Shown here: positions 22,468-36,834 of the stretch, in pieces
Layout of the letters: each line of letters opens with the position of its first letter
How positions within the stretch are numbered: the stretch's first letter is position 1
From: Escherichia coli
GTDB lineage: Bacteria; Pseudomonadota; Gammaproteobacteria; Enterobacterales; Enterobacteriaceae
Length of the DNA stretch: 64,000 nt
Assembly: GCF_050320075.1 (NCBI RefSeq)
Contig: NZ_CP190018.1
Direction: 5' to 3' (one strand)
Translations under genes and position numbers: made by a program
Notes under the pieces: generated by a model
Database searches by the model: none
The model's input: only the letters and a program-made list of their open reading frames with translations
Told to the model about the DNA's origin: nothing

Positions 22468-25199
22468 CGCATCTGGAACTGGTTCCCGTCCCGCCTGTCG
22501 CGCAACTGGCGGGCGTGAGCCAGCATTATGGAAAAACCGTTGCGCTGAACAATATCACTCTCGATATTCCGACCCGCTGCATGGTTGGGCTGATTGGTCC
22601 GGATGGCGTCGGGAAGTCGAGTTTATTGTCATTGATTTCCGGTGCTCGTGTCATTGAGCAGGGCAATGTGATCGTGCTGGGCGGCGATATGCGCGACCCG
22701 AAGCATCGACGCGACGTTTGCCCGCGCATCGCCTGGATGCCGCAGGGGCTGGGTAAAAACCTCTACCACACCTTGTCGGTGTATGAAAACGTCGATTTTT
22801 TCGCCCGCCTGTTCGGTCACGACAAAGCGGAGCGAGAAGTGCGAATTAATGAGCTGCTGACCAGCACCGGGTTAGCACCGTTTCGTGATCGTCCGGCAGG
22901 GAAACTCTCCGGCGGGATGAAGCAAAAACTGGGGCTGTGCTGTGCGTTAATCCACGACCCGGAACTGTTGATTCTTGATGAGCCAACAACGGGGGTTGAC
23001 CCGCTCTCCCGCGCCCAGTTCTGGGATCTGATCGACAGTATTCGCCAGCGGCAGAGCAATATGAGCGTGCTGGTCGCCACCGCCTACATGGAAGAGGCCG
23101 AACGCTTCGACTGGCTGGTAGCGATGAATGCCGGAGAAGTGCTGGCAACCGGCAGCGCCGAAGAGCTGCGGCAGCAAACGCAAAGCGCCACGCTGGAAGA
23201 AGCATTTATAAATCTGTTACCGCAAGCGCAACGCCAGGCGCATCAGGCGGTAGTGATCCCACCATATCAACCTGAAAACGCAGAGATTGCCATCGAAGCG
23301 CGCGATCTGACCATGCGTTTTGGTTCCTTCGTTGCCGTTGATCACGTCAATTTCCGCATTCCACGCGGGGAGATTTTTGGTTTTCTTGGTTCGAACGGCT
23401 GCGGTAAATCCACCACCATGAAAATGCTTACCGGATTGCTGCCCGCCAGCGAAGGTGAGGCGTGGCTGTTCGGGCAACCGGTTGATCCAAAAGATATCGA
23501 TACTCGCCGTCGGGTAGGCTATATGTCGCAGGCGTTTTCGCTCTATAACGAACTCACCGTGCGGCAAAACCTTGAGTTACATGCCCGTTTGTTTCACATC
23601 CCGGAAGCGGAAATTCCCGCGCGAGTGGCTGAAATGAGCGAGCGTTTTAAGCTCAACGACGTTGAAGATGTTCTGCCGGAGTCATTACCGCTCGGCATTC
23701 GCCAGCGGCTTTCGCTGGCGGTGGCGGTGATTCATCGCCCAGAGATGTTAATCCTCGATGAGCCTACTTCTGGTGTCGATCCGGTGGCGAGGGATATGTT
23801 CTGGCAGTTGATGGTCGATCTCTCGCGTCAGGACAAAGTGACTATCTTCATCTCCACCCACTTTATGAACGAAGCGGAACGTTGCGACCGTATCTCACTG
23901 ATGCACGCCGGAAAAGTGCTCGCCAGCGGTACACCGCAGGAGTTGGTTGAGAAACGCGGAGCCGCCAGTCTGGAAGAGGCATTTATCGCCTATTTGCAGG
24001 AAGCGGCAGGGCAGAGCAGCGAAGCCGAAGCGCCGCCCGTGGTACACGACGCCACCCACGCGCCGCGTCAGGGATTTAGTCTGCGCCGTCTGTTTAGCTA
24101 CAGCCGTCGCGAAGCACTGGAACTGCGACGCGATCCGGTACGTTCGGCGCTGGCGCTGATGGGAACGGTGATCCTGATGCTGATAATGGGTTACGGCATC
24201 AGTATGGATGTGGAAAACCTGCGCTTTGCGGTGCTTGACCGCGACCAGACCGTCAGTAGCCAGGCGTGGACGCTCAATCTCTCCGGTTCCCGTTACTTTA
24301 TCGAACAACCACCGCTCACCAGTTATGACGAACTGGATCGCCGGATGCGTGCGGGCGATATCACGGTGGCGATTGAGATCCCACCCAATTTCGGGCGCGA
24401 TATCGCGCGTGGTACGCCTGTGGAACTCGGTGTCTGGATCGACGGTGCGATGCCCAGTCGTGCCGAAACGGCAAAAGGTTACGTGCAGGCTATGCACCAG
24501 AGCTGGCTACAGGATGTGGCGAGCCGACAATCCACACCCTCCAGCCAAAGCGGGCTGATGAACATTGAGACGCGCTATCGCTATAACCCGGACGTAAAAA
24601 GCCTGCCAGCGATTGTTCCGGCGGTGATCCCGCTTCTGCTGATGATGATCCCGTCAATGCTAAGCGCCCTTAGCGTGGTGCGGGAAAAAGAGTTGGGGTC
24701 GATTATCAACCTTTACGTGACTCCCACCACCCGTAGCGAATTTTTGCTTGGCAAACAGCTACCGTACATCGCGCTGGGGATGCTGAACTTTTTCCTGCTC
24801 TGCGGCCTGTCGGTGTTTGTGTTTGGCGTACCGCATAAAGGCAGTTTCCTGACGCTCACCCTGGCGGCGCTGCTGTATATCATCATCGCCACCGGAATGG
24901 GGCTGCTGATCTCCACCTTTATGAAAAGCCAGATTGCCGCTATTTTCGGTACGGCGATTATCACGTTGATCCCGGCGACACAGTTTTCCGGGATGATTGA
25001 TCCGGTAGCTTCGCTGGAAGGTCCAGGACGCTGGATCGGCGAGGTTTACCCGACCAGTCATTTTCTGACTATTGCCCGCGGGACGTTCTCGAAGGCGCTG
25101 GATTTGACTGATTTGTGGCAACTTTTTATCCCGTTGCTGATAGCCATCCCGCTGGTGATGGGCTTAAGCATCCTGCTGCTGAAAAAACAGGAGGGATGA
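22464..25199 (+). CDS. rbbA: Ribosome-associated ATPase RbbA (two ABC ATPase domains fused to a permease domain)
   Basis: 911 aa; two Walker A motifs ([18 protein letters not shown]) and LSGG signatures; C-terminal membrane domain. Confidence 0.92.
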
Positions 25200-26323
25200 T
25201 GCGCCATTTACGCAATATTTTTAATCTGGGTATCAAAGAGTTGCGCAGTTTGCTCGGTGATAAAGCGATGCTGACGCTGATTGTCTTCTCGTTTACGGTG
25301 TCGGTGTATTCGTCAGCGACCGTTACGCCAGGATCGTTGAACCTCGCGCCGATCGCCATTGCCGATATGGATCAATCGCAGTTATCGAACAGGATCGTTA
25401 ACAGCTTCTATCGCCCGTGGTTTTTGCCACCGGAGATGATCACCGCCGATGAGATGGATGCCGGGCTGGACGCCGGACGCTATACCTTCGCGATAAATAT
25501 TCCGCCTAATTTTCAGCGTGATGTCCTCGCCGGACGCCAGCCAGATATTCAGGTGAACGTCGATGCCACGCGCATGAGCCAGGCATTTACCGGCAATGGG
25601 TATATCCAGAATATTATCAACGGTGAAGTGAACAGCTTTGTCGCGCGCTACCGTGATAATAGCGAACCGTTGGTATCGCTGGAAACCCGGATGCGCTTTA
25701 ACCCGAACCTCGATCCCGCGTGGTTTGGCGGGGTGATGGCGATCATCAACAACATTACTATGCTGGCGATTGTATTGACCGGATCGGCGCTGATCCGCGA
25801 GCGTGAACACGGCACGGTGGAACACTTACTGGTGATGCCGATAACGCCGTTTGAGATCATGATGGCGAAGATCTGGTCGATGGGGCTGGTGGTGCTGGTG
25901 GTATCGGGATTATCGCTGGTGCTGATGGTAAAAGGCGTGCTGGGCGTACCGATTGAAGGCTCGATCCCGCTGTTTATGCTGGGCGTGGCGCTCAGTCTGT
26001 TTGCCACCACGTCAATCGGCATTTTTATGGGGACGATAGCGCGTTCAATGCCGCAACTGGGGCTGCTGGTGATTCTGGTGCTGCTGCCGCTGCAAATGCT
26101 TTCCGGTGGATCCACGCCGCGCGAAAGTATGCCGCAGATGGTGCAGGACATTATGCTGACCATGCCGACGACACACTTTGTTAGCCTCGCGCAGGCCATC
26201 CTCTACCGGGGTGCCGGATTCGAAATCGTCTGGCCGCAGTTCCTGACGCTGATGGCAATTGGCGGCGCGTTTTTCACCATCGCACTGCTGCGATTTAGGA
26301 AGACGATTGGGACAATGGCGTAA
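25196..26323 (+). CDS. yhhJ: ABC-2 family transporter permease YhhJ
   Basis: Start MMRHLRNIF overlaps the rbbA stop; polytopic membrane protein. Confidence 0.88.
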
Positions 26324-26424
26324 TTACAGTTGCCCGATGCGTAAGCTTATAGGGTCTACGCATTGGTGCAATTTATTGAATTTTAGTTTTTTTTAGGCCG
26401 GATAAGGCGTTTATGAACTGACCA

Positions 26425-26911
<487 letters not shown>

Positions 26912-27240
26912 TTTGTTCTCCTTAATTATGTAAGGAGTATTTGATCATGTATAAGCAATGGAAAACAGCTTTAGGTAATAAGGAATATCTCAATTATTGA
27001 ATATTTAGTGCGAATTATTTAGTACAAAAAAGCAGCGTTGCGTGATCTTTCCCTGCCCTTTATTCATAAACACATGGATATGGTGATCAACGGTGGTCTG
27101 ATGGAGGCGCAGAGCCTGAGTAATCATGACTGAATTTCAGCCTTCAGAAGCCAGAAAAATGGCTTTAATACAATCGCAGCCCCGCTTTTCACAACATTAT
27201 GCTTATAATATGAAAAATATCTTGCCTTGCATCTTTGTGC

Positions 27241-27720
27241 CTACGGCATTGGATGATCTTTCCCTAACCTTATAGTTTCTTTTAGCCTTTCAAGCCTTAG
27301 CAATTCAACCTCGGCTTTAATATAGCCATGTGAGGCAGCCATTTTCAGCCAATTAATTGCATTATCTAAATTATAATATTTTAAATAGGAATCATCCTCC
27401 TCTGAGGATAGAATCATAGCATAATTATATTGCGCTATGATATTTCCTTGAGATGCAGACCTTGCCAGATATTTAATTTGCTTGGGTATATTAAAGCAAA
27501 CATATGTATAATATTGATGTAATCGATATGACGCATCACCATCCCCGCCCTCAGATTTAATATCAAGTTCATATCTTTGATTTTCACTTAAATTAAACGA
27601 TTCAGATGTTGAGCTTATTTCAATGTTATGGAGCTTAATAGGGGGGGGGATTTCACCTCCATATGAACAACAAGAGAAAAAGAAAACATTTGCAATCAGA
27701 ATAAATAAAAAGCACTTCAT
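27241..27720 (-). CDS. Secreted Sel1/TPR-like repeat protein; candidate immunity protein for the adjacent orphan Rhs tip
   Basis: Signal peptide (MKCFLFILIANVFFFSCC), Sel1-like repeat signatures, immediately downstream of the orphan tip; AT-rich. Confidence 0.55.
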   Translation of the reverse strand: MKCFLFILIANVFFFSCCSYGGEIPPPIKLHNIEISSTSESFNLSENQRYELDIKSEGGDGDASYRLHQYYTYVCFNIPKQIKYLARSASQGNIIAQYNYAMILSSEEDDSYLKYYNLDNAINWLKMAASHGYIKAEVELLRLERLKETIRLGKDHPMP

Positions 27721-27733
27721 GTTGCCACCTTTG

Positions 27734-28725
27734 TTATTTTATATCACTTGGTCTCATAACTTTGCCAGGAGTGGAAGAAATGGGTTGACCTGAAGGTCCA
27801 AACGTTATCCAGCGGCCCATATTATTACCAGTTATGACATTATTACTTGTGTCAATTGCCGAGATATTATCCGTAAGTCCTGTTTGGATCGTATTAAAAA
27901 GAGGAGTATTATTATCCCACGCCATCCATACTTGCCATTGTGTATCAGCTCCAGTGACATTTGCATGAAGTGCTCTGGCTAACTTGCTGGCAAAAGATTT
28001 ATCTCCCTCTCTGGCTGTACCACATGAGAATAATCAAACAGACATTCCCTTTTTATAGCGTGGATTAGCTCTGATTCTCTTGGCTAATCCCTCAGCAGTT
28101 TCATAGTTTCCATTTTCATCTGTAATAAAACCAGGATATCCATGTCCTCCAATAGTAAAAACGCCAGGAATATTTATTTTATCTGTTGCAGCATGCAGTG
28201 ATACATTTCTGCGTATCCCCTCATCATAGAAATTCATATCAGCTAATCCAAAAGGGTCTATATACTGAACCGGATTCAACGGATACTCATAAAAATTCCA
28301 TCCCCCCTTCAGCCCAATCGAATCCTGAGTGATATACCTCCCCTGCAGCGGGTCATAATAGCGGTGGCGGTTGTAATACAGGCCGGACTCCTCATCATAC
28401 TGCTGACCCGGCAGGCGGATGAGTTGCTGCAGCTGTTGCGGGTTCTCTTCATTCAGCAGGTTGCCCCATTCATCGTATTCTGCGCACCATTCTGTTGCCC
28501 CTTCCGTGCTGATAAGCACCAGCGGCAGGCCGCGATGGTCGCAGTGGTACAGGTGGATTTTTCGCGCCGGCGTGTACACCGGGTCCATCTGGTTTTGCAT
28601 CTGCTTCACCGTCAGGCCGCACGATGCCAGCCAGCGGCGGCTTTCCTCACTCACCCGGTCAGCCAGGATTTCACTTTCCAGCCGGTCGAGCATCTGCACC
28701 GTGCCGGCGGGAATCCCCCACTGTG
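27734..28725 (-). pseudogene. Orphan rhs fragment: last part of the Rhs core plus an unrecognised C-terminal toxin domain, interrupted by one in-frame TGA at 28034-28036
   Basis: 28258-28700 is near-identical to 33108-33550 of the full rhs gene; the tip diverges after the DPxGL-type motif (here YIDPFGL); track ORFs 28034-28699 and 27734-27925 are in the same frame, separated only by TGA. Confidence 0.75.
28258..28700. repeat. Copy 1 of a near-identical direct repeat (about 443 bp), the rhs core 3' segment in the orphan fragment
   Basis: Collinear with 33108-33550 at constant offset 4850 with few mismatches. Confidence 0.85.
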
Positions 28726-28740
28726 CATAGGCAACTCACG

Positions 28741-29583
28741 CTATGAACGCTTCAGCTTATCAATAGCGGAAGTTATAATTTCATTGTCATCAAACTTGTA
28801 CAACATAGTATCTAAAACAGGAAGTAGCGTTTTATCACCTAATTCACCCGCAGCTTCAATGATATCATCATAAACAGTATTTTTTTTTAACTCATCGCAT
28901 AAAACAGATAAAACCCTTTTATCTTTTCTGTAGGAAAGTCCGATTATTGCTTCAATACGGACTTCCTCATTTTTATCCTGAAGCATCTCCACAAAACAAT
29001 CCCTAATATCACTATTATCATATTTATTGATATTTATTGCAAATGCGGCCCAGTTTCTGACATCTCCATTTGGATCTTTTAACAGATTAATCAATAGTGG
29101 AATTGTTGCTTTATCATTGATAACAGAAATAGCAAATGCTGTAGCACGTCTGACATTAGTCGATTTATCAAAAGCAGTAATTTGAGATTGTTCTACTATT
29201 TTAGGTGAATAAATTGGGTTTTTCTTGCATCGCTGAGCCGTTGACTCGATTGCCGTAGCTCGAACGCAAGCGCTCTTATCATTCAATGCCATATTGTTCA
29301 AAATATTAAACACATTATCTTTGCATTTTTTGCAAATTTTTATTTGCCCGAGTATAAATGCTCCGATATCTCTACGGATATAATTTTTATCAGAGCAGAA
29401 CTCAATTGCCAATCTAACAGCGTCTTGACCACCTCTTAACTGTAATACTCTGGCAGATGAAATCCTTTTCAAGGAATTGTGATCATCAAGTAAGCGAAAT
29501 AATTCATCATCATTTAGTTTCTTACATTGATTATATAAACCATACTCTTTACTTGCCTTTCTTTTCTGGTATGTATTTGACAT
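28741..29583 (-). CDS. HEAT-repeat protein (YibA-like), immunity-type gene in the Rhs array
   Basis: Repeated D/N-x-x-VR-x-x-A motifs; GGAGG RBS 6 nt before the ATG at 29583; about 280 aa like the rhsA-linked YibA. Confidence 0.7.
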   Translation of the reverse strand: MSNTYQKRKASKEYGLYNQCKKLNDDELFRLLDDHNSLKRISSARVLQLRGGQDAVRLAIEFCSDKNYIRRDIGAFILGQIKICKKCKDNVFNILNNMALNDKSACVRATAIESTAQRCKKNPIYSPKIVEQSQITAFDKSTNVRRATAFAISVINDKATIPLLINLLKDPNGDVRNWAAFAININKYDNSDIRDCFVEMLQDKNEEVRIEAIIGLSYRKDKRVLSVLCDELKKNTVYDDIIEAAGELGDKTLLPVLDTMLYKFDDNEIITSAIDKLKRS

Positions 29584-29687
29584 TGCAGGAACCTCCATAA
29601 AGACTATCTTTTTCTATCGTTTGACTGTCTGGAGTCCTCCACCTACTCTGCCATCAGCACACACGATGTTTGTTTATCCTTACATAC

Positions 29688-29954
29688 TTATTTTCCGTGG
29701 CCAAAATTTAGAATTCTCCCGTCATTTTTGCCTATTTCTATAATAAAAACCCTACCAGCAATTTGGTCTGATTCAATGGTGCCTTCAACAATCCAACTTG
29801 TTGGTAATTCCATGATTTTGTATGGTTTTTCTTCTTCTGCGGCATCATGCCCATAACGATTTTTAACATACATCTCAGCTAATTCCAATGCTATAGCTTT
29901 ATTTTTTACCAAATTTCTAACGGTGTATTTCCCCTCACATTCATACTTGCGCAT
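29688..29954 (-). CDS. Small cytoplasmic protein paralogous to 31553-31900; immunity-like candidate
   Basis: 88 aa; shares ALEL..Y.K..YG...E.KPY.I.....W.(I/V)EG....G..F.I.I.K.DG pattern with the 115-aa protein. Confidence 0.45.
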   Translation of the reverse strand: MRKYECEGKYTVRNLVKNKAIALELAEMYVKNRYGHDAAEEEKPYKIMELPTSWIVEGTIESDQIAGRVFIIEIGKNDGRILNFGHGK

Positions 29955-30035
29955 TATAATAATATTATTACACTGCGCCCATGTGTTGTATGTAAAAACA
30001 AAGATACAATCACATAGGTTCTGAATAATATTTTC

Positions 30036-30401
30036 TTATACGTTGTCATGTATTTTGCAAACATTAGACAATCCTTTTCCATTTATTATATCTTTCCCAT
30101 GATTATCTATTGCTTTAAAATTTTCACCTATTGACCTTGAATTACTACAATCACTTCCAGTGAAATCTGAGTTATTCAGAATAGCATTCATCAGAGCCGC
30201 ATTGTGAAAGACAGCATTTCTAGTTGATGTATGTTGAATCATTACATTTCTTAAATGAGTTTTTTCAAATTTCGCCCCATCAAGACAATAACCATTGAGG
30301 GTGGCACGATGTAGATTCATCCCGCTAAAATCATATCCAGCAAGAGTGGTACTATCTATCTCAAGAAATTTATTGGTTATTAAAAATGCGATTCTTATCA
30401 T
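30036..30401 (-). CDS. Pentapeptide-repeat protein (about 121 aa)
   Basis: Tandem five-residue repeats of the A(D/N)LxX type; GGAGG RBS 5 nt before the ATG at 30401 (track uses TTG at 30413). Confidence 0.6.
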   Translation of the reverse strand: MIRIAFLITNKFLEIDSTTLAGYDFSGMNLHRATLNGYCLDGAKFEKTHLRNVMIQHTSTRNAVFHNAALMNAILNNSDFTGSDCSNSRSIGENFKAIDNHGKDIINGKGLSNVCKIHDNV

Positions 30402-30439
30402 CTGTTCCTCCAATCATCTAACTCCTGAAAAATTTGAAA

Positions 30440-30600
30440 ACCAGAACCTCGCTTAGGCCTGTGTCCATACTACGTGGGTAGGATTATTCTGCGTACTACG
30501 CTGTTGTCCCTTACGTGCTGATAAGGGCTGGCAGGTTTCCGGCTTGCTTCGTTGAGTTCACTACGCTAAAGCTCCGTGTCCACATAACCCAGCTCGGAGG
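30440..30600 (-). pseudogene. Degenerate rhs core fragment
   Basis: Translation GNLPALIST*GTTA*YAE resembles the core segment [22 protein letters not shown] but carries in-frame stops. Confidence 0.45.
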
Positions 30601-30649
30601 CATGACCTTCTCTGGTTCGTTCCATCTAAAATGTCTATAACTGACATGG

Positions 30650-30970
30650 TTATTCAATTATTTTTTCTTTGAGTTTATTCTCAATCCAGCGGTCTTTATA
30701 CCTGATGAGAATTTGACATTCACCAATATTATCAATGTCACCAACATTTGTGTTTCGAATTTGACCAACAGCAACTATAGTTGATTCAAAACATTCAACA
30801 TTGACTTTATCTGTTATTATTGAAACTATATAATCATCTGGAATGGAGCCATTAGGTATTATATTAAAGAAAGTAACATCGGTAAATACTAAATAACCAT
30901 TTTCTAAGTCTTCATTATTATAAAAATTCCATTCTGTTGTACCATAGGCTATCCTTGAGATTAAATTCAC
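30650..30970 (-). CDS. Small cytoplasmic protein, immunity-like candidate; GTG start overlaps the stop of an upstream 27-codon tip remnant (GTGA)
   Basis: 106-aa AT-rich ORF; 4-bp stop/start overlap with the preceding short ORF, as in toxin-immunity pairs. Confidence 0.4.
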   Translation of the reverse strand: MNLISRIAYGTTEWNFYNNEDLENGYLVFTDVTFFNIIPNGSIPDDYIVSIITDKVNVECFESTIVAVGQIRNTNVGDIDNIGECQILIRYKDRWIENKLKEKIIE

Positions 30971-31092
30971 CTGAATTCTAATTTGTTTGCTCCATAAATC
31001 AAATTCAATTTTTTTATTGGTCGATCACCAAGATATATTCTATCAAACATATTACCCTCTATTCTAAAAATACTCAGGCATTCCACACATTA

Positions 31093-31420
31093 TATCAGCC
31101 TCATCTTGACTGCTTCCCGTTTCCCGATACGGCGGTGCGGGGAGTCATAAAGGTAAGAAATTTCCAGCAGTACGGCGTCCTATTGTTCACGGCGGTAATG
31201 CACCAGCCAGTATTGGCTATCGTAGTGATAACCGTGTAATCTGCCGCCGCATCGCGTATCTAATGTTCATTCTTTTCCATAAACCGTCCGTACACATTGT
31301 GATAGTAAAAATACAATACATCTTCGCTGATGCGGTTATTCTGCTGCATGTGGGAAGCGCCGAATACTGCTCCCGGTATGGCCAGTAATTACTATTTAGT
31401 ACGACGTTAGGGGGAGTCAC
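31093..31420 (-). pseudogene. Degenerate rhs core fragment with stops and frameshifts
   Basis: Translation ...GRLHGYHYDSQYWLVHYRREQ*...YLYDSPHRRIGKRE resembles core [17 protein letters not shown]...[13 protein letters not shown]. Confidence 0.45.
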
Positions 31421-31552
31421 TTAATCTCACAGATACTTCAAGTAACAGATGAAAATCGCTCCTGAAATGAAAAAGAAATTTTTTTGAATGTGTTCCTGTC
31501 AAATCAAGTGGTTTTTTCGTCGATATGTAGAGTCATATTGTACACAAAATAG

Positions 31553-31900
31553 TTATGAAACACACCTTGGTAAAATATTTGAATCGTCTGAACAGTGGAT
31601 TATTTTGTGTATTACATCCAACGCTTGCCCATCTTTTTTCGCTATTAGTATTGTAAAATTTCCTCCTAACGTCTTCGGTTGTTTTCCCTCGATTTTCCAA
31701 CAATTATTGTCATCTGTAATACTATATGGTTTCTGAAATTCTGCTTTTTCTTTCCCGTATATATATTTAATATAAACATATGATAATTCCAAAGCCATTT
31801 CACGACTATTTACTAAAATTTCCACTGAATTTTCTTTTCCAAATACTGAGTGTGATATTGTAAACAATATCATAATAAGTAATATTAGTGAGTTTCTCAT
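31553..31900 (-). CDS. Secreted small protein paralogous to 29688-29954; immunity-like candidate
   Basis: Signal peptide (MRNSLILLIMILFTISHSVFG) and shared motif pattern with the 88-aa protein. Confidence 0.5.
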   Translation of the reverse strand: MRNSLILLIMILFTISHSVFGKENSVEILVNSREMALELSYVYIKYIYGKEKAEFQKPYSITDDNNCWKIEGKQPKTLGGNFTILIAKKDGQALDVIHKIIHCSDDSNILPRCVS

Positions 31901-31912
31901 GCTCTACACCTA

Positions 31913-32047
31913 TCGAATCTCAAAAGTTGTGGGTAAAACATTACATTCAGAATATATGATATTCTTACCATCGGAATCCATTTTTCCAAATCGACCTTCT
32001 GGTGTTCCTGGATACCCATTAAGAACATATTTTTTCGAATAGTTAAT
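31913..32047 (-). pseudogene. Start-less remnant of a toxin C-terminus (about 45 codons)
   Basis: Open frame ...YSKKYVLNGYPGTPEGRFGKMDSDGKNIIYSECNVLPTTFEIR ending 10 nt before the next gene; no start codon. Confidence 0.3.
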
Positions 32048-32068
32048 TTATTTTCTCAGGAAGAGATT

Positions 32069-32638
32069 TTATTTTTCTTCACTACGAAGCAGTTCATGCT
32101 GTACTTTTGTTAAACATTCGTAAGACTCATCTTTGTTCGGGAGATGTGCTGTCATTCGAGCATAAGTTGGCTTCTCATCTTTAAAATATTTAACCATGAT
32201 TGAATTATCAAGGACTGCCAACAACTGAGCTGGATCACTGCTCTTTTTTTGATAGATACCCGCTCTTATATAACTTCTAAACCGATCGCCGAGAAACGCC
32301 GTTTTTTCTGCTGTATTTAGCAACTCCTGCAACGTTCCTTTGGTTGCATGATTTTCATTAAGGCGTAGTGATCCGACGCGAATTAAGAGTCTCGCCCCGC
32401 TTGGTGTGAATTTGTTATTTTTACATATACCAAGTTCTGTTTGCCAATAATACTCACCTATGTCCTCATTCTGATACCATCTCCACATGGTTTTATTATT
32501 TAAGACAGGAAACGCGGAAAAAATAGTACCCTTAGTGAAAATGGTAAAGCAATCTTGATCTTTAGCTTGTGTTTCGCAATTAGCTATAACACCAAAACTA
32601 ACGAATATCATCAGCAAAAAGAACAAAGCTCTTTTCAT
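32069..32638 (-). CDS. Candidate cognate immunity protein (RhsI) for the main Rhs toxin; secreted or lipoprotein
   Basis: Start overlaps the rhs stop by 4 bp; N-terminal signal peptide ([21 protein letters not shown]); AT-rich. Confidence 0.6.
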
Positions 32639-35600
32639 TTTCTTATTCCTCTCGATGTTCTCTGTTTCATTTTAGCTAAAATTTCACCCAAATCATCTAT
32701 CCCTGCTGTTGCTGGCCCATCGGGTTTATTAATGTCTGGGAATAAATAGGGTTCTGCACAAGTATATCCTGGTGGTAATTGAGTTGTTGGCCAAGTTGTC
32801 TGTGGCAGGTAATCACTTGCTGTCTTTGTCTCCATCCCTGGATACTGGGGATCATCCTGCGGCGTACAAGTCAGATTGGGTTTTACCCACTTCCTGCAAT
32901 ACAGTGTGTAATCGTAAGGACTTAATGCTCTGAAGAATGTTTTGAAAACATTAGGCGCACTACTGGCCTGGTCAATAGGATATGGCAGTCTTAATTGTTT
33001 CGCTATGTCTGGCAACTTACTTGGATCGGGCGTAGGCGGTTTGTTGGGTCTCGCTCCATATCCGCCATTATTTAAGTGTCCATATTTAGATGCCAGTCCC
33101 ATTGAATCTATATACTGAACCGGATTTAACGGATACTGATAAAAATTCCATCCCCCCTTCAGTCCAATCGGATCCTGAGTGATATACCGCCCCTGCAGCG
33201 GGTCATAATAGCGGTGGCGGTTGTAATACAGGCCGGACTCCTCATCATACTGCTGACCCGGCAGGCGGATGAGCTGCTGCAGCTGGTGCGGGTTCTCTTC
33301 ATTCAGCAGGTTGCCCCATTCATCGTATTCTGCGCACCATTCTGTTGCCCCTTCCGTGCTGACAAGCGCCAGCGGCAGGCCGCGATGGTCGCAGTGGTAC
33401 AGGTGGATTTTTCGCGCCGGCGTGTACACCGGGTCCATCTGGTTTTGTATCTGCTCCACCGTCAGGCCGCACGATGCCAGCCAGCGGCGGCTTTCCTCAC
33501 TCACCCGGTCAGCCAGGATTTCACTTTCCAGCCGGTCGAGCATCTGCACCAGCACCGGCGGGAACACCACACTGCCACCGTCTTCGCCGCCGGACTGCTG
33601 AAGGGCATCCGCCAGGCTGCGGCGCTGCGTTTTCGCCAGCTCACCGGTGGCGGTTTCAACTCTGATGAGTGGCGTGAAGCTCCCCGGCTGATAAACCGTC
33701 TGGATGCGGGTTCTGTCGTTCTGTATCGTGGTCAGCCGGTCGCCGTCCCAGCCGTACCAGGTCACTTCCGGTTTCCGTGACAGCGACATCCAGCCCGTCA
33801 GGTCCCGTTCACGCCGCCATACCCGTTTTGCCACCCTGCGGCCCAGCGGGTCGTAAAGATAGCGACTTTCGACCAGCGGCTCTGCATATTGTGTCCGCGT
33901 GTAGTGCACCAGCCGGTGCCGGCTGTCGTAATGATACCGGTGAGTCCGCTCATCATCCGTGCGGATAACCCCTTCCGGGATGAGGTCGGTTTTCTCTGTC
34001 AGCCTGCCGTGACGGTCATACCGGTAAAGATAGTGCGCGTCACGGGCGATACGGTTATCCGGCCACATGCTGAGGGTGCTGTCCGGGTGCAGCTCCGGGT
34101 CGGGCAGGCGGTTGCCTGCCGGGTCCGTGGCATACGGGATGCGGATATCCAGGTTCGCTGCCGTGGTGTGGACGCCGGTCAGCCTGCCGGTGTCGCTGTA
34201 GCTGTAACTCCGGGTCTGGCGCGGGCTGCTGATGCGGATGAGTTCGCCGTTGTCGTTCCAGGTGTAATCGCGGTCATACTGCAGGCTGTTCAGGTGCTGG
34301 CTCTGTAACTGCCCGGCAGAGGTGTAAGCGGTGGTGAGTTCATAACGGCCGAAGCTGCGCAGCGTTTCCCGGTGCAGGCGGTCGCGGGTGTACTCCACCA
34401 GCGGTGTGTCGCCGAGTTTCATGCCTGACAGCCAGCCGCTGCCGTAGGTCAGCCATTCCACGGCGGGCAGGCTGTCCGGTATACAGCGGTTCGCCAGTCC
34501 CTGCGCGTTGTAAGCGTGTCTGGTTTCATGCTGCCAGAGCAGTGCTTCCGTCTGCGGGTGATGCACCGTCTGGCGCTCACCGGTCAGGCGGCCTTTCTCA
34601 TCATACCCGTAATGCACCGTCACCCGGTGGCCTTCGCTGAGATGGCTGATGCCTGTCAGCCAGCCGCGTTCGTCATACTGCCACTGCTCTGCCGGTTCAC
34701 CATTCACCGTTCGCTGTGTGATGCGGTCTGCTTCGTCATAGTGCCAGTGGGTGACCAGCCCCTCATCCTCGCTGCGGATAAGTTTGCCGGTCAGGTCGTG
34801 GTGATAACGCTGTGTGCGGCCGTCAAAGCCGGTTTCCTGTATCAGCCGGTCAAGTACATCGTAACGGAAGGTGGTGTGGCTGCCGTTTTCACTGGTCAGG
34901 CGGATGACCCGCCCGGCAGCATCGTATTCCATACTGCGCGTCAGACCGCCCTGCGTGGTACGAACGGGCTTTCCCCACGCATCGTACTGTGTCCCGTTTC
35001 TGCTGCCGTCCGGGGCAATGACGGCGGTCAGGTCACCGGCGGCGTTGTATTCATACCGCGTTTCATGGCCCTGCGTGTCTTTCACCGCAATTAACTGTCC
35101 ACGGCTGTCGTATGCGCGGTACTGACTCAGCCCTTCCTCGCGGTGCACCGCCGTCATCTGACCAAAACGGTCATGGTCATAACGGGTTACATAACCGGAA
35201 CAGTCAGTGACGGTCAGCAACTGACCGTAACGGCTCCATGTCATGGTTTTCCGGCTGCCGGTGGCATCCTCCGTTGCGCAGGGTAAGTCACTGTGTGGAT
35301 TATCATAACGGTAGCGGGTGATATCGCCGTTGTGTGCGGTTTCCTGAATCAGACGGCCGGATTCATCATATTCCCGGCGCAATTCCAGCCCGTCAGGCCC
35401 GGTGGCTGACGTTAACTGGCTGTGGTGGTTATAGTAAAATGCCGATGCCCTGCCATCCGGTGTGGTGATGCGCGTGATGAGTCCCGTCACCACATCCGGG
35501 CTGTACTCAGTCGTCCGGCCTGCGGCATCCGTCTGTGCCTTAAGCCTGCCCACCGCGTCAAACTGACTCTGCGTGACGCTGCCGTCCGCGTGTTCCTTTT

Positions 35601-36834
35601 TCACCACCCGCTTCAGCCCGCCTTCGCCCTGCGTGTGCAGCACTTCACGGCGGTCCAGACTGTCGGTGATGGTGATGCGGTCTTTCTCATACTGATACGT
35701 GTAGCTTAAGCCTGCCGGGTTTAGCTGCTCTGTCACCCGCCCGTCGCTGTCGTAACGGTAACGGATTTCTGGCCGGCCCGCGCGGTGGTGCGCCACCATC
35801 CGGCCCCGGTATTTATCATCGTAAGTAAAGCTGCGCACCTGTTTGCCACTGCGGTCATACACCGCCGCCAGTTCGCCGCGTGGCGTCCAGCCATAGCGCA
35901 CCAGCGGCGCGGCAGGTAAATTCTCCGGGTATTCCGGGTCGTGTGTCAGCCACACGGCAGACAGACGGATACCGTTGTCCCGGCCATATTCCGTGTAGTC
36001 CGGCAGGGTATCAGGAAAAGCGGACGGTTCCGTCCCGCCGGAAGAGGCCTGCTGCCGGGCCTCTTCTGCCCGCTGCGCCTGCGTGGTCAGTACCAGCCGG
36101 AAGTGACGCCCGGCACCATCCGTCACGCCGGTGATTTCGCCGCTGAATTCACCGCCAGCCTCACGGTGAAACGTCTGTGTGCGCCCGAAGCGGTCCACCA
36201 GCCCGGTCAGTACCCGGTACGGCGGCAGCGGCGCGGGCAGCACCTCATCCGCTTCCGGCACCCGCTCACACCAGCCGAGCAGCCACCACGGCCCCTGCGG
36301 ACTGTTTGTCGCCAGATAACGATGCGGACTTAAGCGGAGTTCTTCCGGCAGCGCCTGCCAGAGTGCGGTCAGCCGGTGACCTTCATCCAGTTTCAGGACA
36401 CCGCCACGCACCAGCCAGAGTGACTCGCTGCGGCTGTAACCGTCCTCACCGGGAAACAGGTGCTCAAAATACAGGCTCCTGCCGCCGTTATCACTGAGTA
36501 TCAGTGTGTTATCGCGCAGCTGTAGGCGGATATCCGCAGGCATTTTCCAGCCGGGGCCGAGGCTCCCCACCGGCGCGGGCGTTTTTGTCCGGTAACTGCT
36601 GTAGGTGCGGGAGAGGATGAACGGCAGCGGGCCGGGCAGGGCAAGGTCGGTTTCGCCGGGAAGGACCTTCGCGCCGAGCAGCGGATTGACCGGATGGCCG
36701 GACGTCACCCCGCCGGGGCACACCGAACAGGCCACGCCGGTGGGGGCACCAATACGTACCCCGGCAGAACCCTGAACAATGCTACCGCCATACTGCGTCA
36801 TGTCGCCCTGACGCGCCGCCGGTTTTCCGCTCAT
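32635..36834 (-). CDS. rhsB: Rhs family protein (RhsB-like) with PAAR-motif N-terminus, YD-repeat core and an unrecognised polymorphic C-terminal toxin domain (about 32638-33107)
   Basis: 1399 aa; N-terminus [11 protein letters not shown]; numerous YD repeats; core ends at a DPxGL-type motif (YIDSMGL) after which sequence diverges from the orphan copy. Confidence 0.93.
33108..33550. repeat. Copy 2 of the direct repeat (within the full-length rhs gene)
   Basis: See 28258-28700. Confidence 0.85.

Follow-up and report, generated by a model that had tools for sequence, protein, structure and literature searches.

Does the short pentapeptide-repeat reading frame on the minus strand of this Escherichia coli Rhs array encode a working immunity protein, or is it what remains of one? 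Pentapeptide-repeat proteins are abundant, and the few with a known job are mainly involved in topoisomerase protection. The window, by which we mean the whole stretch of 64,000 nucleotides analyzed, matches E. coli genomes, and a window-identical genome has been annotated by PGAP. The open reading frame (ORF) has its ATG at 30401 and its TAA stop at 30036-30038, encodes 121 aa and has a GGAGG 5 nt 5' of the start codon (30407-30411). An earlier note, made from the sequence, had described it as a stand-alone pentapeptide-repeat protein with a strong ribosome-binding site, placed in an immunity slot whose toxin tip was lost. The best overall explanation, to which we give a probability of about 0.8, is that an orphan toxin-immunity cassette has decayed here and that the ORF is its chimeric remnant, not a working stand-alone gene.

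Judged by profile and sequence matches, the pentapeptide-repeat signal of the ORF is genuine. Pfam Pentapeptide_4 (PF13599) matches aa 18-83 with an E-value of 9.5e-8, sequence matches to solved pentapeptide-repeat structures reach down to E 3e-8, and 16 pentads can be counted in register over aa 18-97, 13 of them with a hydrophobic centre. Read in fives from residue 18, the register is gone past residue 97. The NCBIfam matches are weak and repeat-driven (Alr5209 30.5 bits, HetL 28.5, MfpA 19.6 and Qnr 17.6), the cut-offs for the families matched being 125-360 bits (240 for Qnr and 360 for MfpA). A single-sequence AlphaFold2 model of the 121-aa ORF was unusable (pLDDT 33), and a promoter scan gave weak consensus matches only. 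A word-indexed homologue search with the ORF returned near-identical copies only, and an Rfam scan of 26000-33000 gave one sub-threshold chance match, located outside the ORF.

The array occupies the site of the K-12 RhsB locus, with nikR and yhhJ on its two sides (Table 1), and vgrG and DUF2169 genes are absent from it. It resembles the orphan tip-immunity cassettes of Rhs and CDI arrays in that the ORF follows a full rhs gene within a series of units of core fragment, tip and immunity gene, with insertion sequence debris alongside and with immunity-type neighbours (NTF2-fold, DUF6258, HEAT (yibA) and Sel1). Unlike such cassettes, the unit studied here is doubly deleted: the toxin is gone, and the shortened immunity gene runs on into the toxin tail of the next unit.

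Table 1 Features of the Rhs array around the chimeric ORF, in window coordinates
Feature	Position	Strand	Basis
Full 1399-aa RHS protein	32635-36834	-	
189-aa YbfC-like protein	32069-32638	-	
NTF2-fold immunity gene	31553-31900	-	
AT-rich decayed rhs core fragment	31117-31349	-	
DUF6258 gene	30650-30970	-	
44-nt trace of conserved rhs core	30485-30528	-	82-85% identity to window 28476-28516 and 33326-33369 in rhs cores
62-bp remnant, IS3 right end	30423-30484	.	95% match to IS3 ends in ~1,600 genomes; L057 and L012 alignments
Last 11 codons of the deleted putative cognate toxin (predicted ParB/sulfiredoxin fold), QIFQELDDWRNR and stop	30402-30436	-	Alignment to AF40 toxin 3' end from 30436
Chimeric ORF	30036-30401	-	ORF list and sequence; PGAP has two pseudogene pieces in window-identical genomes
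Codons 1-93 of the ORF, N-terminal cap and ~15 pentads	30123-30401	-	95% DNA identity to AF40 gene; PF13599, E 9.5e-8
Deletion junction, AAYTTT (Asn-Phe) microhomology	30117-30122	-	Homology limits
Last 28 codons and stop of RhsB-type toxin tip, fused in frame, NFKAIDNHGKDIINGKGLSNVCKIHDNV and stop	30036-30122	-	Colinear with K-12
yhhH-like NTF2-fold immunity gene, frameshifted	29688-30064	-	PGAP of identical genome; K-12 alignment
yibA-like HEAT-repeat gene	28741-29598	-	NCBIfam PRK09687, 466 bits; annotated yibA
rhs core fragment	28034-28699	-	
Sel1-repeat gene	27241-27720	-	
IS630 and ISAs1 debris	26477-26911 and adjacent		Annotation of identical genome
yhhJ	25115-26323	+	

Several of the surrounding features carry details of their own. 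In the main Rhs protein, the DSMGL motif is followed by a C-terminal tip of ~150 aa. Behind it comes the YbfC-like protein, which has a hydrophobic N-terminal segment; no NCBIfam family was matched by this protein or by three of the small downstream proteins (88, 106 and 115 aa). The AT-rich core fragment shows 39-55% protein identity to aa 923-1004 of the main Rhs protein and contains an in-frame stop, being far more diverged than the core fragment at 28034-28699 (92% identical). In the yhhH-like gene, 4 nt are missing from the part that encodes the hydrophobic N-terminus, a loss that shifts the frame, and an 88-aa ORF from an internal ATG still spans its NTF2 domain.

The ORF is a chimera of two genes. 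Its first 93 codons come from a pentapeptide-repeat gene of 161 aa, of which they make up the first 58%. This is the putative immunity gene that E. coli AF40 carries intact (L012 7001-7285), and window positions 30117-30436 are 95% identical to the module formed by the toxin end and immunity gene of that strain. From 30122 down to 29237 the window is instead colinear with K-12, at 92% identity over 893 nt, through the final 87 nt of rhsB, then yhhH and a yibA-like pseudogene. In direct alignment the tail of the ORF faces the K-12 RhsB tail NFKAIDNHGKEITNRKGLPNVCRVHGNM, both ending in a stop codon, and the yhhH-like gene shares 29 nt with the ORF, the same overlap that K-12 has between yhhH and rhsB. 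The 3' 76 nt of the ORF matched the rhsB/yhhH junction in ~2,700 E. coli genomes in a distant-mode DNA search. Homology to the intact gene stops at 30117 and homology to K-12 rhsB begins at 30122; the AAYTTT between these limits is common to the pentapeptide-repeat gene and the rhsB-type tail, and the fusion point reads …SRSIGENFKAIDNHGK…. The claim of a stand-alone protein of about 121 aa therefore holds for the ORF and its repeats but not for its integrity, because codons 94-121 are the tail of an RhsB-type toxin.

An exhaustive HMMER search, whose list otherwise consists mostly of giant repeat proteins scoring through repetition, gave family relatives of 160-168 aa that are alignable only to aa 1-96 of the ORF. 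The full form is thus ~160 aa long, with 25 pentads and a C-terminal cap, and compared with the intact protein the ORF has lost nine of the 25 pentads together with the T-x-W-P-x-G-F-x-P...GAI cap. What is left amounts to ~4 coils, versus ~6.25 in the intact protein. The core phenylalanine at residue 85 has become cysteine (F85C), and the family motifs LHRAI, LRN and ALMNA are still present. The pN/pS ratio between the remnant and an intact copy is 0.43, a value based on only 13 differences, too few to decide constraint.

Upstream of the ORF, the sequence up to 30649 is common to the window and the RhsC array of REL606, in which the homologue of the 44-nt core trace region is annotated as an RHS fragment. 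The toxin of the intact module ends in ...QIFPELDDWGNR, of which the window keeps only the 11 codons listed in Table 1. The inner edge of the IS3 remnant and the toxin tail share a 14-nt microhomology, TCCNGAANAATTTG, so that both deletion junctions, this one and the one within the ORF, lie at short microhomologies. The placement downstream of a decayed rhs core fragment with a missing toxin tip, as the earlier note had it, is borne out by the core trace and the surviving toxin codons. The GGAGG is likewise real, but it is not a free-standing signal: it falls within the W-R codons of the toxin tail (last codons W-R-N-R-stop), and the toxin stop overlaps the ATG of the ORF as ATGA. A ribosome-binding site inside the last codons of the toxin is the usual coupled arrangement.

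What the ORF was before these deletions is best seen where the gene is intact. In E. coli AF40 a 1403-aa RHS protein is followed by the 161-aa pentapeptide-repeat protein, whose start overlaps the RHS stop as ATGA. The RHS protein is WP_181679505.1, with a tip of 143 aa, and the repeat protein is WP_000618048.1. The intact protein has 25 pentads and the T-x-W-P-x-G-F-x-P cap, and its sequence matches solved beta-helix repeat proteins down to E 1.7e-12. The module of toxin and pentapeptide-repeat gene is found at at least 99% identity in 143 of 5426 complete E. coli genomes, where it lies beside yddH and nhoA, i.e. at the RhsE locus. Metagenome contigs were scanned with a degenerate DNA pattern for MDGNVIVxxNHR, which gave 26 loci, two of them chance matches and 24 true. 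A pentapeptide-repeat ORF of ~160 aa lies directly 3' of the toxin in all 21 true loci that have downstream sequence, and by mechanical ORF extraction its start lies between -34 and +68 nt relative to the toxin ORF's stop. The larger of these offsets come from unresolved start codons and, in two loci, from a premature stop in the toxin frame. A tblastn search of plasmids added Pseudomonas aeruginosa pHPA0008-4, in which a toxin domain of 36% identity is followed by an annotated pentapeptide-repeat gene.

The toxin domain in question forms the C-terminal ~105 aa of Rhs proteins and also of CdiA-like proteins of more than 1900 aa. The metagenome partners and the E. coli protein have the motifs LHRAI, LRN, ALMNA and T-x-WP-x-GF-x-P...GAI in common, and the partner family is mildly acidic (pI 4.2-7.0). 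Pairwise identities of toxin and immunity proteins are correlated (r = 0.76 for 15 pairs), a figure that is confounded by phylogeny. Conservation within the family is 0.54 for the N-terminal and 0.56 for the C-terminal half, and does not tell which of them binds the toxin. Some contigs have the intact gene called in two parts (69 + 91 aa), which was traced to a 1-nt assembly indel or to scaffold gaps. The toxin of P. aeruginosa (L030 1554-1862, on the 2.6-kb 'plasmid' pHPA0008-4) and that of contig L054 have an in-frame stop after ...IAEKILG, and in other Pseudomonas-like contigs the toxin reads through to ...DWGNK.

The order of toxin and immunity gene is conserved: in different carriers the intact relatives follow the toxin tip on its 3' side and share its strand, and the window retains 11 toxin codons and the ATGA overlap of this arrangement. 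Cognate immunity genes are typically recognized by just this pattern, a conserved adjacency to one toxin domain that holds in two delivery scaffolds. Gene order and sequence similarity thus support the assignment of the intact 161-aa protein as the cognate immunity protein of a predicted ParB/sulfiredoxin-fold toxin domain. The proposal of an immunity slot with a lost cognate tip is accordingly upheld by the intact relative that overlaps the stop of a complete Rhs toxin, and homologs adjoining intact toxin tips, which the earlier note had suggested looking for, are present in the 143 E. coli genomes, the 21 metagenome loci and P. aeruginosa.

The fold of the lost toxin was approached by modeling. 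An AlphaFold2 model from a 12-sequence alignment reached a pLDDT of 89.1 and a pTM of 0.81, and Foldseek of this model against AFDB50 gave 73 matches at E <= 1e-3 with TM-scores of 0.75-0.9, many of them named ParB/Sulfiredoxin domain and located C-terminally in RHS, haemagglutinin, DUF637 and Hint proteins. An invariant (D/N/E)GNHR lies at a strand-to-helix turn of the model. The lost toxin is thus confidently predicted, from the structural model, to be a ParB/sulfiredoxin-fold domain at the C-terminus of its carrier. Sequence profiles did not reveal this: the toxin tip had no match in Pfam (ParBc included), NCBIfam or PDB sequences with the threshold relaxed to E 10, and one member of the toxin alignment matched DUF1015 at E 0.1. 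Foldseek of the model against the PDB gave nothing significant, the best match being a ParB-N domain at E 1.7. A tblastn search of phage genomes with the toxin gave no match, and a word-indexed homologue search yielded two fragments only. Proteins of the ParB/sulfiredoxin superfamily bind nucleotides and include phosphotransferases, CTPases and reported nucleases. A literature search found no experimental study of ParB-fold toxins.

Toxins of this general kind are known as Tox-ParB, described with a DGHHR motif and with Imm20, Imm27 and SuFu as immunity partners; in the part of that account available to us, pentapeptide repeats are not mentioned among the partners (Zhang et al. 2012, PMC3482391). 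As far as that part goes, the lost toxin resembles Tox-ParB in being, by its model, a small ParB/sulfiredoxin-fold C-terminal domain of RHS- and haemagglutinin-type carriers, with (D/N/E)GNHR situated where Tox-ParB has DGHHR, and differs from it in having a pentapeptide-repeat partner and no sequence-profile match. Repeat genes next to polymorphic toxins have been noted before: YjbI-like genes lie beside GH-E nucleases, although the neighbour was not recognized there as an immunity gene (PMC5714182), and the Rhs immunity protein Tsi6a of Stenotrophomonas has been likened to the pentapeptide-annotated antitoxin DYE20_11255 of Mycobacterium chelonae (bioRxiv 10.64898/2026.07.13.738213). These cases, compared with ours by description only, share the adjoining toxin gene, but the partner toxins of Tsi6a and the YjbI-like genes are different ones (Tse6 and a GH-E His-Me finger, as opposed to the predicted ParB fold here). 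Our literature search found no description of a pairing between a ParB-fold toxin and pentapeptide-repeat immunity, and such a pair apparently has been undescribed so far.

We propose the following history for the locus. The ancestral unit would have consisted of a displaced rhs core fragment, a tip of the ParB/sulfiredoxin fold and the 161-aa pentapeptide-repeat immunity gene, with a second unit (RhsB-type tip, yhhH and yibA) behind it. Insertion of IS3 into the core fragment of the first unit would have been followed by a microhomology deletion from inside IS3, in which most of IS3, the core and the toxin were lost and 11 toxin codons were left. By a second microhomology deletion, the final 28 codons of the RhsB-type tip would then have come to follow codon 93 of the immunity gene in the same reading frame. 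As to function, we infer that the intact protein, with its putative beta-helix, most likely binds the toxin directly and blocks its nucleotide- or nucleic-acid-binding cleft. The intact family may possibly do so by mimicking the substrate of the toxin, acting on the toxin itself and not on a host enzyme.

The window ORF, in contrast to the intact gene, is probably a pseudogene. We infer that the truncated copy is inactive because it is shortened, lacks the cap, ends in foreign sequence and has a Cys in place of the core Phe, and because it lies among pseudogenes and is itself called one by PGAP. At at least 99% identity the remnant is found in about 271-273 of 5426 complete E. coli genomes, in ~270 of which the ORF is unbroken. 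Nearly all of the 143 genomes with the intact module also have the remnant, and about half of the remnant carriers are without the intact module. Strain GmM066 has the same chimera at a different locus, RhsA, close to yibH and mtlA. There it is part of a 4.6-kb block, remnants included, with 97.9% identity to the window (window 28427-33000 versus L003 4014-8591); whole arrays therefore move between rhs loci. Of the 273 carrier genomes, 252 have no IS2 in the stretch just 5' of the ATG. In about 21 carriers a 1331-bp element of the IS3 family, of the size of IS2, is inserted exactly at the GGAGG (L001 7913-9243), whose 5 bp form the target duplication, and such an insertion cuts the ORF off from everything upstream.

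The truncated protein could still be made, given that the fusion preserves the reading frame, that the start codon and its Shine-Dalgarno sequence are undamaged and that ~270 genomes have the ORF without a break. It might then be a half-length decoy with a toxin-binding face that gives partial protection against the ParB-fold Rhs toxin of related E. coli, from which the carriers lacking the intact module would gain. We regard this as unlikely. The intact frame and start and the pN/pS of 0.43, on its 13 differences, leave room for some residual function; beta-helices are modular, and the family motifs kept in the remnant likewise count against inactivity. The at least 99% identity among 271 genomes, the absence of IS2 from the junction in most of them and the second copy at RhsA in GmM066 are also in line with a retained product. 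However, clonal descent without selection gives the same high identity, and the chance that a fusion falls in frame is one in three. Nine of the 25 pentads are missing, as is the cap that is conserved in every family member, 28 residues are foreign and a core Phe is replaced by Cys, the yhhH-like neighbour is frameshifted, and the whole stretch consists of fragments, the ORF itself being treated as a pseudogene by PGAP.

A wider form of this idea takes the ~160-aa repeat proteins as an unrecognized immunity class for one subfamily of ParB-fold toxins, mimicking the nucleic-acid or nucleotide substrate of the toxin by reuse of a Qnr-like trick, with the half-length copy of the window still protective. 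Taken as a whole we find it doubtful.

The earlier note had gone further and suggested that the protein neutralised a lost tip targeting a topoisomerase or another DNA-binding enzyme, naming Qnr and McbG as DNA mimics that protect gyrase or topoisomerase. Here the evidence led elsewhere, and we consider it very improbable that the protein is a DNA mimic of the Qnr, McbG or MfpA type that shields gyrase or a topoisomerase from a tip poisoning that enzyme. The resemblance to Qnr, MfpA, McbG and AlbG lies in the tandem pentapeptide repeats and in a role, putative in our case, as a protective factor against a toxic agent; the intact protein weakly matches QnrB1, MfpA and McbG-like structures (E 2e-11 to 4e-4), and the mild acidity of the family would suit a DNA mimic. 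These matches are, however, driven by the repeats and are equally good to cyanobacterial and designed repeat proteins. The ORF scores 17-20 bits where the Qnr and MfpA cut-offs are 240 and 360, and the intact protein also stays far under them (Qnr 32.3 and MfpA 37.2 bits). Qnr and MfpA have 8-10 coils, against four in the window copy and ~6 in the shorter intact form of 161 aa. In addition, the gene is tied to a protein toxin and not to a gyrase-inhibitor pathway, the predicted ParB/sulfiredoxin-fold toxin is unlike known gyrase poisons, our search found no link of the lost toxin to topoisomerases, and the strict one-to-one adjacency seen with both Rhs and CdiA carriers is more readily explained by direct toxin binding than by the guarding of a host enzyme.

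It is hardly credible that the ORF represents a type VI secretion accessory or adaptor protein (TagAB/TagB-like) and not immunity, for although pentapeptide-repeat proteins occur as accessory components in vgrG islands beside DUF2169 (PMC3942780, PMC10933656), this array is without vgrG or DUF2169, the gene lies 3' of a toxin tip with an ATGA overlap and not 5' of an effector, and the pairing also occurs behind CdiA-like two-partner secretion proteins, which use no type VI adaptors.

Read as a decayed chimeric remnant, the ORF is an ordinary piece of genome debris such as builds up in Rhs arrays. The locus nevertheless provides a clean, base-resolved example of the way in which orphan toxin-immunity cassettes are eroded and fused, through insertion of an insertion sequence and deletion at microhomologies. 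The strict pairing of the intact gene with one toxin domain across phyla suggests a testable second job for pentapeptide-repeat proteins, namely toxin immunity, and the pairing offers a handle on ParB-fold toxins.

The closer relatives of the repeat protein are orphans in Rhs arrays of Salmonella salamae and Enterobacter. More distant ones (42-57% identity; L029 7001-7453, L026 and L027 6983-7465) stand alone with no toxin nearby in Escherichia whittamii, Intestinirhabdus alba and Gilliamella, each a single gene among housekeeping genes; the fold is therefore not tied to immunity alone. The small ORFs beside the Gilliamella and Enterobacter relatives matched no immunity family in Pfam. The neighbours of the distant relatives are pabB and a yoaH-like gene in E. 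whittamii, azlCD in I. alba and a pssA-like gene in Gilliamella, and these stand-alone proteins may be orphans of ancient origin or may represent the stock that supplied the immunity gene.
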